The translations under genes and the position numbers were made by a program. Shown here piece after piece: positions 320 through 50,797 of a stretch of 64,000 nucleotides of DNA (within the stretch, counting starts at the first letter, position 1; each line of letters opens with the position of its first letter). The notes under the pieces are model-generated. The model was not told where the DNA came from. It searched no databases and saw only the letters and a list, made by a program, of their open reading frames with translations. This DNA is from a phage. Location of the stretch: the sequence record PZ295659.1; one strand, 5' to 3'.

Positions 320-2052
320 TGGAAATGATTAGCAGTAGCCTTAATTGGTTCGTGGGCGTTGTCGAGGACAGAATGGACCCATTAAAACAAGGGCGAGTTC
401 GAGTTCGAGTCGTTGGTCTTCATCCGGCGCAGAGAACACAAGGCGATGTACAAGGTATTCCTACAGAAAAACTTCCATGGATGACTGTTATTCAACCTAT
501 TACGTCTGCATCAATGTCAGGTATTGGTGGTTCTGTTACAGGTCCTGTTGAAGGAACTCGAGTATATGGTCATTTCTTAGACAAATGGAAAACAAACGGG
601 ATTGTACTTGGTACATATGGCGGAATAGTACGTGAAAAGCCTAATAGACTTGAAGGTTTTTCAGACCCGACAGGCCAGTATCCGCGACGTTTAGGTAATG
701 ATACGAACGTATTAAACCAAGGTGGTGAAGCTGGTTATTATTCGAACTCTAACGTAATTCAAGATAACAACTTGGATTACGGTATAAACCCAGACGATAC
801 AGATTTAGCAAATATTCCAGAAGATGATGACCCTAATTTTACAATAACAGAAATGTTACGTCGTGATGAAGGTCTTCGTGATAAAGTGTATTGGGACCAT
901 CTCGGATATCCTACAGTAGGTATTGGACACCTTATCGTAATGGAAAAGACCCGAGATATGTCTCGAATTAATAAATTGTTATCTGATCAAGTAGGGCGTG
1001 AAGTAACAGGAAATCCCGGGACTATTACATTAGAAGAAGCAACAGCGTTATTTGAGAAGGACCTTGCTAAGATGCAGAAAGACATTCGTTCTAATTCTAA
1101 AGTAGGTCCTGTTTATGCTAAAATGAACAGATCTCGCCAAATGGCATTAGAAAACATGTGCTTCCAGATGGGCGTTGGTGGTGTAGCAAAATTCAATACT
1201 ATGCTTAAAGCAATGGCCACAGGCGATTGGAAAACCGCATACAAATCCGGACGCGATTCGTTATGGTTCCAACAGACTAAAGGGCGTGCTTCACGTGTAA
1301 CAACAATTATTTTAACTGGTAACATGGAATCATATGGCGTTCCTGTTAAAACACCACCTTCACCAGGAGTTGGTGCCAATTTAGTTACTAGAAATACCGA
1401 TCCAGAAGACCCGGCTGGTCCTCCTGTTCCGTTAGATTCACGTATCCTTTTTAAAGAACCTGAATCAAGTTATCGTGGTGAGTATCCATACGTTCATGCT
1501 ATGGAAACAGAAAGCGGTCATATCCAAGAATTTGACGATACTCCAGGTAATGAACGTTATCGCTTAGTTCATCCAACAGGGTCATATGAGGAAGTTTCTC
1601 CGTCTGGGCGTCGTACTCGTAAAACTGTAGAAGACCTTTTTGACATCACTAACGGCGATGGGAACTTCTTGATTTCCGGTGATAAACTTGTTAACGTTGG
1701 TGCTAATGAAATATATTATAACATGGCAGACCGCCTCCATCAAATAGACGGCAATGACACAATCTTTATTCGTGGTAACCAAGCTAAAACTGTTGAAGGC
1801 GATGGAACTCTTTACGTTAAGGGTAATATCAAAATAGTTGTTGACGGAAATGCAGATATTCTTGTTAAAGGTGATGCTAAAACTCAGGTCGAAGGGAATC
1901 ATGATTACACCGTCAACGGAAACGTTAAATGGACTGTTAATGGTAATGTTGATATGACTGTTGCCGGGGATTGGGCAGAGACAATGTCTACAATGAGCTC
2001 AATAGCTTCAGGACAATACACTGTTGACGGATCTCGTATTGATATTGGGTAA
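319..2052 (+). CDS. 5: baseplate central spike gp5 with tail lysozyme domain
   Basis: 577 aa; N-terminal OB-like region, T4-lysozyme-like segment (DEGLRDKVYWDHLGYPTVGIGHL), C-terminal beta-helix VxGxxxxx repeats; T4 gp5 is about the same length. Confidence 0.95.
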   Translation: MEMISSSLNWFVGVVEDRMDPLKQGRVRVRVVGLHPAQRTQGDVQGIPTEKLPWMTVIQPITSASMSGIGGSVTGPVEGTRVYGHFLDKWKTNGIVLGTYGGIVREKPNRLEGFSDPTGQYPRRLGNDTNVLNQGGEAGYYSNSNVIQDNNLDYGINPDDTDLANIPEDDDPNFTITEMLRRDEGLRDKVYWDHLGYPTVGIGHLIVMEKTRDMSRINKLLSDQVGREVTGNPGTITLEEATALFEKDLAKMQKDIRSNSKVGPVYAKMNRSRQMALENMCFQMGVGGVAKFNTMLKAMATGDWKTAYKSGRDSLWFQQTKGRASRVTTIILTGNMESYGVPVKTPPSPGVGANLVTRNTDPEDPAGPPVPLDSRILFKEPESSYRGEYPYVHAMETESGHIQEFDDTPGNERYRLVHPTGSYEEVSPSGRRTRKTVEDLFDITNGDGNFLISGDKLVNVGANEIYYNMADRLHQIDGNDTIFIRGNQAKTVEGDGTLYVKGNIKIVVDGNADILVKGDAKTQVEGNHDYTVNGNVKWTVNGNVDMTVAGDWAETMSTMSSIASGQYTVDGSRIDIG

Positions 2053-8942: not shown

Positions 8943-8960
8943 GGGAGACTTCGGTCTCCC
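8943..8960 (+). terminator. stem-loop GGGAGAC-UUCG-GUCUCCC followed by U-tract (after gene 8)
   Basis: perfect 7-bp GC-rich stem, UUCG tetraloop. Confidence 0.7.
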
Positions 8961-26688: not shown

Positions 26689-28257
26689 ATGACTACTATC
26701 AAAACTAAAGCTCAGCTCGTAGACAAATGGAAAGAACTGCTGGAAGGTGAAGGCCTGCCGGAAATCGCTAATAGCAAGCAGGCTATTATCGCTAAAATCT
26801 TCGAAAACCAGGAAAAAGATTTCGAAGTATCCCCTGAATATAAAGACGAGAAAATCGCTCAGGCATTTGGTTCTTTCTTGACCGAAGCTGAAATTGGTGG
26901 TGACCACGGTTATAATGCTCAGAACATCGCAGCAGGTCAAACCTCTGGTGCAGTAACCCAGATTGGGCCGGCAGTTATGGGTATGGTTCGTCGTGCTATT
27001 CCTAATCTGATCGCTTTCGATATTTGTGGTGTTCAGCCTATGAACAGCCCTACCGGTCAGGTATTTGCTCTCCGTGCAGTATATGGTAAAGACCCTATCG
27101 CTGCTGACGCTAAAGAAGCTTTCCATCCGATGTATGCTCCAGACGCGATGTTCTCTGGTCAGGGTGCTGCTAAGAAATTCCCAGCTCTGGCTGCTAGCAC
27201 ACAAACCGTTGTAGGTGATATCTATACTCACTTCTTCCAGGAAACTGGTACTGTGTATCTACAAGCTTCCGCTGTAGTAACAATTGATGCTGGCGCTACC
27301 GATGCAACTAAACTGGATGCTGAAATTAAGAAACAAATGGAAGCTGGTGTACTGGTAGAAATCGCTGAAGGTATGGCTACTTCTATCGCTGAACTTCAGG
27401 AAGGTTTCAACGGTTCTACCGATAACCCATGGAATGAAATGGGCTTCCGTATCGATAAACAAGTTATTGAAGCTAAATCTCGTCAGTTGAAAGCAGCTTA
27501 CTCCATCGAATTGGCACAAGACCTCCGTGCAGTACACGGTATGGATGCTGATGCTGAACTGAGCGGTATTCTTGCTACTGAAATTATGCTGGAAATCAAC
27601 CGTGAAGTTGTTGACTGGATTAACTACTCCGCTCAGGTTGGTAAATCTGGTATGACTAATATCGTTGGTTCTAAAGCTGGTGTATTTGACTTCCAGGACC
27701 CGATTGATATCCGTGGTGCTCGTTGGGCCGGTGAAAGCTTTAAAGCTCTGTTGTTCCAGATTGATAAAGAAGCAGTTGAAATTGCTCGTCAAACCGGTCG
27801 TGGTGAAGGTAACTTCATTATCGCTTCCCGTAACGTAGTTAACGTACTGGCTTCAGTTGATACTGGTATTTCTTACGCTGCACAGGGTCTGGCTTCTGGT
27901 TTTAATACCGACACTACTAAGTCTGTATTTGCCGGTGTACTTGGTGGTAAATACCGCGTATACATCGACCAGTATGCTAAACAGGATTACTTCACCGTTG
28001 GTTACAAAGGCGCTAACGAAATGGATGCAGGTATTTACTATGCTCCTTACGTTGCACTCACCCCACTGCGTGGTTCCGATCCTAAGAACTTCCAGCCGGT
28101 AATGGGCTTTAAAACTCGTTACGGTATCGGTGTTAACCCGTTTGCTGAAAGTTCCCTGCAGGCTCCAGGCGCTCGCATCCAGTCCGGTATGCCGTCTATC
28201 CTGAACAGCCTTGGTAAGAACGCTTACTTCCGCCGTGTATATGTAAAAGGCATCTAA
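26689..28257 (+). CDS. 23: major capsid protein gp23
   Basis: 522 aa; about 95 percent identical to T4 gp23 as I recall it. Confidence 0.98.
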   Translation: MTTIKTKAQLVDKWKELLEGEGLPEIANSKQAIIAKIFENQEKDFEVSPEYKDEKIAQAFGSFLTEAEIGGDHGYNAQNIAAGQTSGAVTQIGPAVMGMVRRAIPNLIAFDICGVQPMNSPTGQVFALRAVYGKDPIAADAKEAFHPMYAPDAMFSGQGAAKKFPALAASTQTVVGDIYTHFFQETGTVYLQASAVVTIDAGATDATKLDAEIKKQMEAGVLVEIAEGMATSIAELQEGFNGSTDNPWNEMGFRIDKQVIEAKSRQLKAAYSIELAQDLRAVHGMDADAELSGILATEIMLEINREVVDWINYSAQVGKSGMTNIVGSKAGVFDFQDPIDIRGARWAGESFKALLFQIDKEAVEIARQTGRGEGNFIIASRNVVNVLASVDTGISYAAQGLASGFNTDTTKSVFAGVLGGKYRVYIDQYAKQDYFTVGYKGANEMDAGIYYAPYVALTPLRGSDPKNFQPVMGFKTRYGIGVNPFAESSLQAPGARIQSGMPSILNSLGKNAYFRRVYVKGI

Positions 28258-28280
28258 TCTTAATTGATTAAATCTTATTT

Positions 28281-28300
28281 TGGGAGACTTCGGTCTCCCA
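28281..28300. terminator. bidirectional terminator UGGGAGAC-UUCG-GUCUCCCA between gene 23 and the convergent 89-aa ORF
   Basis: identical hairpin to 8943 and 50780; T-tract downstream. Confidence 0.7.
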
Positions 28301-28308
28301 TTTTGGTT

Positions 28309-28578
28309 TTATTTCTGTGCAATTTCGATGTAAGTTTTCAAAATATTTTGCCAATTAGGCATACCTTCTTGGACATATGCTAGAGAACCGTCTTTGTTTT
28401 TGAATGATGCAAGTTTATCAGTGGCCCAATAACCTTTAGCTCGAGCTTCAGAATCAACTTTCATCCATACTTTGTTGAAGGCATTACCATTAACTTTTGC
28501 ACCATATTTTTCTACCAACTTAACTGCTTCAGCTTCCAGAACTTTTAAAGTATCTCGTAAGAAACGTGCTTTAGTCAT
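28309..28578 (-). CDS. hypothetical protein, 89 aa, encoded antisense to the late head operon between genes 23 and 24
   Basis: ATG with GAGGAG RBS, own early-type promoter, ends at the bidirectional terminator after gene 23. Confidence 0.6.
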   Translation of the reverse strand: MTKARFLRDTLKVLEAEAVKLVEKYGAKVNGNAFNKVWMKVDSEARAKGYWATDKLASFKNKDGSLAYVQEGMPNWQNILKTYIEIAQK

Positions 28579-28608
28579 TTTGTTTACTCCTCTGTAGTTG
28601 ATAAGTCT

Positions 28609-28638
28609 ATAGTATCACATACTAAATACGTTGTAAAC
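28609..28638 (-). promoter_or_regulatory. early-type promoter (TTTACA-N17-TACTAT) for the antisense 89-aa ORF
   Basis: GTTTAC -35 and TAnnAT -10. Confidence 0.5.
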
Positions 28639-28644
28639 AATCTT

Positions 28645-28652
28645 TATAAATA
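28645..28652 (+). promoter_or_regulatory. late promoter TATAAATA (gene 24)
   Basis: motif. Confidence 0.7.
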
Positions 28653-28679
28653 ATCTATATCACATAAGGAAAAAATGCA

Positions 28680-29963
28680 ATGAGTAAAATCCAAAAATTA
28701 TTGCGTGAATCTACAACGTCTACTAGCAACTCAATTGGTCGCCCAAATCTCGTTGCTTTGACTCGCGCTACGACTAAATTAATATATTCTGACATTGTAG
28801 CAACACAAAGAACTAATCAACCTGTTGCTGCTTTTTATGGTATCAAATATCTTAATCCAGATAACGAATTCACATTTAAAACTGGTGCTACTTATGCAGG
28901 CGAAGTTGGATATGTAGACCGAGAAAAAATTACTGAGCTCACAGAAGAATCAAAAGTCACACTAAATAAAGGCGATTTTTTCAAATATAATAATATCGTC
29001 TATAAAGTGTTAGAAGATACACCATTTGCAGATATTCAAGAAAGTGATCTAGAATTAGCTCTTCAGATTGCGGTCGTTCATTTAAAGGTACGGTTATTTT
29101 CAGATGCAGCGGTAACAAGCAAATTTGAAAGCTCTGGTAGCGAAATTTCTGATGCAAGATTCCAGATTAATAAATGGCAAACTTCGGTCAAATCTCGTAA
29201 ACTTAAAACTGGTCTTACAGTTGAATTAGCGCAAGATTTGGAAGCGAATGGATTTGATGCCCCTAACTTCTTAGAAGATTTGCTTGCTACTGAAATGGCT
29301 GATGAAATTAATAAAGATATTCTTCAGTCTTTAATTACTGTATCGAAACGTTATAAAGTTACTGGAATTACTGACACCGGATTTATTGACTTGAGCTATG
29401 CATCCGCTCCAGAAGCAGGTCGTTCATTATATCGAATGGTGTGTGAAATGGTATCACACATTCAAAAAGAGACAACTTATACTGCAACGTTTTGTGTAGC
29501 CTCAGCTCGTGCAGCTGCTATTCTTGCTGCTTCCGGTTGGTTGAAACATAAGCCAGAAGATGACAAGTATCTTTCACAAAATGCTTATGGATTCTTGGCA
29601 AATGGATTACCTCTTTACTGCGATACCAACAGTCCGTTAGATTATGTTATTGTGGGTGTTGTAGAAAATATCGGCGAAAAAGAAATTGTAGGGTCCATCT
29701 TTTATGCTCCATACACTGAAGGAGTAGATTTAGATGACCCGGAACATGTCGGTGCATTTAAAGTTGTAGTTGATCCAGAAAGCTTGCAACCGTCTATCGG
29801 ATTATTGGTTAGATACGCTTTATCAGCAAATCCTTACACAGTAGCAAAAGATGAAAAAGAAGCGAGAATAATTGATGGCGGGGATATGGATAAAATGGCA
29901 GGACGTTCAGACTTGTCTGTTTTACTCGGTGTTAAATTGCCAAAAATTATCGTTGATGAATAA
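28680..29963 (+). CDS. 24: capsid vertex protein gp24
   Basis: 427 aa; late promoter TATAAATA at 28645. Confidence 0.95.
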   Translation: MSKIQKLLRESTTSTSNSIGRPNLVALTRATTKLIYSDIVATQRTNQPVAAFYGIKYLNPDNEFTFKTGATYAGEVGYVDREKITELTEESKVTLNKGDFFKYNNIVYKVLEDTPFADIQESDLELALQIAVVHLKVRLFSDAAVTSKFESSGSEISDARFQINKWQTSVKSRKLKTGLTVELAQDLEANGFDAPNFLEDLLATEMADEINKDILQSLITVSKRYKVTGITDTGFIDLSYASAPEAGRSLYRMVCEMVSHIQKETTYTATFCVASARAAAILAASGWLKHKPEDDKYLSQNAYGFLANGLPLYCDTNSPLDYVIVGVVENIGEKEIVGSIFYAPYTEGVDLDDPEHVGAFKVVVDPESLQPSIGLLVRYALSANPYTVAKDEKEARIIDGGDMDKMAGRSDLSVLLGVKLPKIIVDE

Positions 29964-50779: not shown

Positions 50780-50797
50780 GGGAGACCGAAGTCTCCC
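50780..50797 (-). terminator. UUCG hairpin GGGAGAC-UUCG-GUCUCCC (third identical copy)
   Basis: stem-loop plus U-tract. Confidence 0.65.

Follow-up and report, generated by a model that had tools for sequence, protein, structure and literature searches.

What is a short minus-strand gene doing between two of the main head genes of a T4-like phage? The window analysed here, a stretch of 64,000 nucleotides from phage record PZ295659.1, belongs to Mosigvirus (RB69/HX01-like), and in a DNA search the region under study is 99% identical to HX01, JS09, PhAPEC2 and APCEc01. Genes 23 and 24 are separated by a gap of 422 bp. A preliminary description, made from the letters alone, had placed there an antisense open reading frame (ORF) with its own early-type promoter, bounded by a bidirectional terminator and perhaps serving anti-defence or host takeover. 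The gap has exactly the size announced. It holds a single ORF of at least 60 aa, which starts with ATG, encodes 89 aa and runs, as described, against the late head genes (Table 1). Taking the evidence together, we consider it probable that the 23-24 gap of Mosigvirus is a self-contained accessory cassette, made of an early promoter, a Shine-Dalgarno site and the 89-codon ORF, and that it encodes a host-takeover or counter-defence factor.

Table 1. Positions of the features of the 23-24 region in the window and of the tracts compared with them
Feature	Position	Strand	Basis or remark
Gene 23, major capsid protein (left flank)	26689..28257	+	
Gene 24, capsid vertex protein (right flank)	28680..29963	+	
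89-aa ORF, RB69ORF188c/189c family, PHROG 6003	28309..28578	-	ORF list, profile match, dN/dS, AlphaFold
Shine-Dalgarno GAGGAG	28587..28592	-	sequence and comparison of 10 loci
T4-type early (sigma-70) promoter: GTTTAC(A), 17-bp spacer, TG, TACTAT	28609..28638	-	scan, conservation, RB69 Pe:109605
Gene 23 intrinsic terminator hairpin GGGAGAC-UUCG-GUCUCCC	28281..28300	+	T-run at 28301-28310
Gene 24 late promoter TATAAATA, perfect match	28645..28652	+	invariant in all lineages compared; RB69 Pl:109573
segD and Dhaka-type allele tract, JQD51	L013 3008-3937		
segD and Dhaka-type allele tract, LF82-5	L015 931-1860		
Promoter element, T4	L029 243-271		homologous to window 28609-28638 (-)
Promoter element, PST	L014 about 1140-1170		homologous to window 28609-28638 (-)

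Promoters, hairpin and boundaries of the unit

The GAGGAG ribosome-binding site proposed for the ORF is present 8 nt 5' of its ATG, and the GGAG core is found in all homologous loci (comparison of 10 loci). Upstream of it, the promoter TTTACA-N17-TACTAT was also confirmed on the minus strand (28637..28609). When the preceding G is included, the -35 element reads GTTTAC, the T4 early -35 consensus (PMC1524935). A TG stands one base upstream of the -10 hexamer, and the 17-bp spacer ends with GTGA. The hallmarks of T4-type early promoters are GTTTAC at -36 to -31, a GT-rich stretch before -12 and an A-rich upstream region (PMC1524935); the window element, GTTTACA-N17-(GTGA)TACTAT, conforms to this T4-type early (sigma-70) consensus. 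The predicted early start is near 28602.

In AT-rich DNA, a single match of this kind is not above chance: the scan found 2 promoter-like matches where 3.5 were expected from shuffles. The promoter is credible because it is conserved across lineages, not because of the scan count. Column conservation, scored on the aligned upstream regions of eight lineages, reaches 100% for the reverse complement of the gene 24 late promoter, 96% for the -35 GTTTACA columns, 90% for the -10 hexamer columns (TAYTAT, but CATAAT in VR20) and 88% for the TG element. It is only 48% over the first 12 positions of the spacer, the length of which is constant at 17 bp. This pattern, in which the hexamers are kept while the spacer varies, supports the early-type assignment. 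In addition, Nolan et al. 2006 had predicted, with an HMM-based method, the RB69 early promoter Pe:109605 on the minus strand at exactly this place (PMC1524935 additional file 3). The RB69 late promoter Pl:109573 was predicted in the same study on the plus strand, exactly at the place of TATAAATA (PMC1524935 additional files). Our literature search found no transcriptome of a Mosigvirus or a Dhakavirus. The host RNA polymerase would transcribe the ORF within minutes of infection, at a time when no late head transcripts are present yet.

The late promoter, on the plus strand, and the early promoter face away from each other; TATAAATA lies at about -43 to -50 relative to the predicted early start (window 28602-28652). 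Since this is the position of the A-rich UP-like element in T4 early promoters, the same A/T block may serve both the late and the early promoter.

At the other end of the unit, the hairpin GGGAGAC-TTCG-GTCTCCC starts 8 nt beyond the stop codon of the ORF. It is conserved across homologous loci and folds strongly on both strands (z about -4.6 to -4.8). A T-run 3' of the hairpin, TTTTGGTTTT, is found on the plus strand only; on the ORF's own strand the hairpin is followed by AAAATAAGATTT / AAAATAAG, with no U-tract. Because the T-run follows on the plus strand alone, the hairpin is, in the window's genome, a canonical terminator for gene 23 only, and the bidirectional terminator of the preliminary description is not borne out here. 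In Gaprivervirus VR20, both sides of the hairpin are T-rich. The same 18-nt hairpin, with its UUCG tetraloop or the complement, occurs three times in the window (8943-8960, 28282-28299 and 50780-50797), where none is expected by chance, and appears to be a recurrent terminator module. These copies may account for the second DNA-search match ('2 places') obtained with many records.

Three related phages, Shfl2, Marfa and CC31, have an empty 23-24 slot. It holds the hairpin and TATAAATA alone, over about 85-90 bp, with no GTTTACA. From this comparison, the cassette therefore consists of precisely the early promoter, the Shine-Dalgarno site and the ORF. As judged from sequence, its insertion point has the terminator hairpin of gene 23 on one side and the late promoter of gene 24 on the other.

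The slot varies in other genera as well. In RB49, the 23-24 spacer is 740 bp long (locus L012, 2948-3687) and contains a 50-aa plus-strand ORF unrelated to the one studied here. Since the RB49 slot carries an unrelated ORF, the 23-24 slot would be a general insertion hot spot, the cargo of which differs among genera. Downstream of the slot, two tandem gene 24 paralogues are observed in Dhakavirus, Gaprivervirus and two metagenomic lineages (L002, L003, L025, L027), and a single gene 24 in the window, MX01 and T4.

Family, selection and dispensability

The ORF product matches phrog_6003 from end to end (residues 1-89 against profile positions 1-90 of 90; E 7.2e-45). PHROG 6003 has no assigned function, and the ORF already figures as a "hypothetical protein" in about 120 Mosigvirus genomes. 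It is 99-100% identical to the annotated hypothetical proteins of HX01, TU01 and PhAPEC2, and the PhAPEC2 record notes its similarity to RB69ORF188c. Hence, the gene and its promoter are already on record and not a new discovery; we are dealing with an ordinary accessory gene of RB69-like coliphages. We found no paper naming the protein together with a function.

A tblastn search retrieved the ORF in 240 phage records, of which about 120 are at least 90% identical and 119 are below 60%; the Tequatrovirus records searched gave no match. Closest to the Mosigvirus type are homologues of metagenomic T4-like contigs (60-71% identity), followed by those of Dhakavirus JS10 and MX01, Gaprivervirus VR20 and one further metagenomic lineage (30-38%). 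The comparison of 23-24 regions across T4-like genomes that had been proposed as a check was favourable to the gene. In every T4-like homologue examined, that is in Mosigvirus, Dhakavirus, Gaprivervirus and three metagenomic contigs, it lies antisense in the 23-24 slot (synteny loci L001, L002, L003, L010, L025, L026 and L027), and it is near full length in 238 of the 240 records. No paralogue was detected within the 64-kb window.

Distant homologues, at about 29% identity, occur in rV5-like/Vequintavirinae phages, the genomes of which are roughly 140 kb long. In these phages, the homologues form part of extended co-directional arrays of unannotated small ORFs, and their neighbours are all orphans. 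In the rV5-like phage ABPH49, the homologue has a GTG start, is bracketed by GC-rich hairpins with GAAA tetraloops (L004 2930-2945 and 3275-3290) and has no promoter of its own. The family is very small: when 1.84 billion representative proteins were searched exhaustively with the profile, 9 matches were obtained, of which six belong to the family (five full length and one truncated). Two repeat proteins and one chimeric contig make up the rest and were judged spurious. A scan of IMG/VR yielded Dhaka- and Gapriver-type loci only.

Synonymous and non-synonymous changes were counted pairwise according to Nei-Gojobori. There are 8 synonymous changes and no non-synonymous one between JS10 and MX01 (ω 0), 18 and 5 between JS10 and LF82-5 (ω 0.06), and 17 and 3 between ABPH49 and a metagenomic relative (ω 0.04), while more distant pairs give ω values of 0.18-0.27. 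These counts show that the ORF is a genuine coding gene on which purifying selection acts. Protein identity is 32% between Mosig-type and Dhaka-type alleles, as compared with about 85% for the C-terminus of the adjacent gp23 between Mosigvirus and Dhakavirus; to judge from these values, the gene evolves much faster than its neighbours.

In the RB69 reference (NC_004928), one +1 and one -1 indel split the gene into ORF188c and ORF189c. This broken copy may be a real pseudogene of the laboratory strain or else an old sequencing error. A cluster of substitutions is also observed in the split region (L028 5292-5532). Three related phages that we examined have an empty slot, and the RB69 reference has a broken copy; on this comparative evidence, the gene is dispensable. 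It is broken in phage 310Ecol104PP too, to judge from one truncated product (P0022; 64 aa, frameshifted, diverging after residue 43). The product of phage mogra is annotated from an internal Met.

Alternative readings and the relation to segD

The unit could act through its RNA. An early 'anti-late' transcript would pass the hairpin into the 3' end of gene 23 and modulate genes 23 and 24, the ORF being secondary. On the minus strand, both the window and JS10 indeed lack a U-tract 3' of the hairpin, and the promoter is kept even ahead of another coding sequence, T4 segD being the example. However, the large excess of synonymous over non-synonymous changes shows that the peptide is selected, and the rV5-like homologues lie in ordinary co-directional arrays with no capsid gene opposite. 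Moreover, the VR20 hairpin has T-runs on both sides, and an Rfam search gave no family match. We regard this reading as unlikely: since the peptide is under selection and distant homologues are found in a non-capsid context, the main function cannot lie at the RNA level. The transcript may have an antisense effect in addition.

A second alternative starts from the statement that segD occupies this slot in T4, which is correct: in T4 the slot holds an antisense segD (PMC2988022 and sequence), and segD is also found there, on the minus strand, in Yersinia phage PST. The ORF could thus be a degenerate SegD remnant or an accessory of SegD (an immunity or targeting factor, or a homing site). But T4 and PST have segD without the 89-aa gene. 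Neither GIY-YIG nor HNH was matched in Pfam, nor HNH in NCBIfam, in agreement with the first reading of the sequence, yet Pfam finds GIY-YIG in the neighbouring SegD of other phages. The search for a degenerate seg fragment by BLASTP, against T4 SegD and Mosigvirus SegD, produced no alignment. Profile-profile comparison with SegD also led us to reject a remnant (hhalign probability 0.9%). From sequence comparison, the ORF is unrelated to the Seg endonucleases.

A link between the two genes is nonetheless apparent in phages JQD51, F2 and LF82-5, which carry both. In these phages, an intact segD starts 3-4 nt after the stop codon of the ORF and apparently forms a second cistron. SegD of this type is 59% identical to T4 SegD and has a GIY-YIG Pfam match (SegE_GIY-YIG for JQD51). 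The gene 23 and gene 24 flanks of JQD51 and LF82-5 are 93-100% identical to those of the window; therefore, both phages have a Mosigvirus backbone. Their ORF, on the other hand, is the Dhakavirus-type 88-aa allele, 89-98% identical to JS10 and MX01 in DNA and about 32% identical to the window ORF in protein. The segD-carrying cassette thus brings its own Dhaka-type ORF allele into Mosigvirus backbones, a point in favour of a tie to SegD.

Against such a dependence, all the directly examined loci of the window's kind lack segD, and the ORF is present in about 240 records versus 33 with the segD variant (at least 95% identity). The linkage of ORF and segD would be explained by co-conversion of flanking DNA: co-conversion during the acquisition of segD would produce the mosaic that we observe. 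The left junctions differ, being at GAGGAG in LF82-5 and about 100 bp further out in JQD51; gene conversion linked to segD may thus have occurred between genera at least twice. The remnant idea is, on these comparisons, largely refuted, and either reading, remnant or accessory, is very unlikely. For T4 specialists, the slot may be of more use than the main result, as a clear case of segD-linked replacement of a neighbouring gene between phage genera.

As a unit, the window cassette closely resembles that of T4 segD. Slot and orientation are the same, and so are the flanking signals, namely the hairpin of gene 23 and, at the other end, the promoter TATAAATA of gene 24; a homologous sigma-70-like promoter stands at the same distance from the late promoter. 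The cargo differs: T4 has a 220-aa GIY-YIG endonuclease, the window an 89-aa orphan protein, and in some Mosigvirus genomes the two genes are in tandem. Just before segD, T4 and PST have TTTACA-N17-TATTAT with an upstream TG (10/12 matches). The -35 element is closer to the early consensus in the window (GTTTAC) than in T4 (ATTTAC). According to a 2010 review, attempts to identify a promoter specific to segD had failed, and transcripts of the gene might be vanishingly rare (PMC2988022). In contrast, in time-resolved T4 omics data, segD is classed as early RNA and middle protein, and a SegD peptide was detected (PMC9697503 supplementary files 4-6). Since the T4 segD RNA is early, the antisense unit of the slot is expressed early in T4, and by analogy these data lend indirect experimental support to early minus-strand transcription of the slot. 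That T4 segD, said to be promoterless, sits behind a homologue of a conserved early promoter is again a point possibly more useful to T4 specialists.

A late or virion-associated protein, either internal or decorating the head, is slightly less likely still. The location between genes 23 and 24 is suggestive, the product weakly matches phrog_8765 (E 0.022), a PHROG family labelled 'internal virion protein', and a 7/8 match to TATAAATA (TATAAAGA) lies upstream on the minus strand. However, the ORF strand has no consensus late promoter and carries instead the conserved sigma-70 early promoter, in an orientation opposite to that of all head genes. Furthermore, the rV5-like homologues stand among small non-structural ORFs, and many phages with the same capsid are missing the ORF. 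Finally, that a functionless ORF has arisen in an AT-rich spacer is barely credible and already refuted by the dN/dS counts: promoter-like matches are not above chance in the region and the RB69 reference copy is broken, but at least four phage groups keep the protein, at identities of 30-99% and with a dN/dS far below 1, the predicted fold is confident and the product is a member of a PHROG family.

Protein properties and possible role

The protein has 89 aa, a mass of 10.2 kDa and a pI of 9.6. It is lysine-rich, as had been remarked (13 of the 89 residues), and contains no Cys and no His. All family members are basic (pI 9.5-9.8, net charge +4 to +7) despite 30% identity, although this charge could be incidental. 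AlphaFold2, run on an alignment of 16 family sequences, gave a model with a pLDDT of 92.7 and a pTM of 0.79, in which a first helix (3-25) is followed by a second (31-48), a β-hairpin (52-70) and a C-terminal helix (76-88). The predicted fold, three helices with a β-hairpin, is thus a confident one. Invariant positions in the family are M1, K3, F6, N30-G31-N32, N35, A45 and Q70. Most of them map to the turn between the helices, to its immediate vicinity or to the end of the β-hairpin, and they may be purely structural.

Searches by sequence, profile and fold gave no informative relative. Foldseek found no structural match in the PDB and a single one among viral models, an unnamed 88-aa protein which we take to be a family member. 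Searches of PDB sequences with the single protein and with the profile returned noise only, and the ORF product matched nothing in NCBIfam or PADLOC (0 matches). The Pfam family DUF4859 was considered and discarded (E 0.003, below the cut-off; matched by only 2 of the 16 family members). The supplements of two accessory-gene screens were checked for sequence motifs of the family and contained none. Homology, fold match and genomic association do not point to a target.

A 10-kDa protein with no catalytic motifs would most likely act stoichiometrically, by binding a polyanionic or acidic host target, nucleic acid or protein, in enterobacterial hosts. The most likely role is that of a host-takeover or counter-defence accessory factor. 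We infer this because of the early promoter, the small size, the lack of catalytic motifs and the dispensability, and because the family is mostly restricted to coliphages and found among small unassigned ORFs in rV5-like phages. The anti-defence or host-takeover idea of the preliminary description is accordingly worded here as plausible, its only grounds being that the gene is early, small, fast-evolving and dispensable.

This picture is familiar from the immediate-early accessory ORFs of T-even phages (those behind early promoters termed 'novel ORFs' by Nolan et al. 2006; functionally, genes such as tifA/61.2, dmd and arn of T4), which share with the ORF a size of about 10 kDa and a T4-type early promoter of their own and are likewise dispensable, patchy and fast evolving. 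In contrast, the ORF has no sequence or fold similarity to any characterised member, and it lies inside the late head operon rather than in the early hyperplastic region. The cassette may also be compared to lambdoid morons: like them, it is a unit with its own promoter and a terminal hairpin, set between two late structural genes, and its presence or absence varies among phages with precise boundaries, so that it is moron-like. It differs in that the window phage is virulent, with no lysogenic expression, and in that the cassette borrows the gene 23 terminator, which is non-canonical on the ORF strand.

A bolder proposal would be that the protein founds a fold family lacking any relative that is solved or annotated, restricted to enterobacterial myoviruses, and that it is an immediate-early effector against a host factor or a defence system, carried by an arms-race cassette with allele swaps driven by the homing endonuclease. 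It is suggested by the presence, in Mosigvirus backbones, of two co-circulating alleles that share only 32% identity and change hands along with segD; we consider it rather improbable as a whole. Should a target be found, the protein would be one more phage early effector with an unmatched fold.

For the present, the results mainly serve to tidy annotation: the "hypothetical protein" that recurs in the head-gene cluster of therapeutic coliphages of the RB69 type is, on the evidence of the substitution counts, a selected gene with a conserved early-type promoter, and not endonuclease debris. Several labels in current records are at odds with the sequences. A 90-aa homologue is named 'NADPH-dependent curcumin reductase CurA' in one source, which is clearly wrong (P0006), and P0026 is a chimeric prediction in which a bacterial enzyme fragment is fused to 30 residues of a Dhaka-type protein. 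In the JQD51 record (PV204681.1), the product names seem to be displaced by one gene: 'homing endonuclease' stands on the gp23-sized CDS, 'hypothetical protein' on the segD-sized one, 'capsid vertex protein' on the 88-aa ORF and 'RNA ligase' on gp24.
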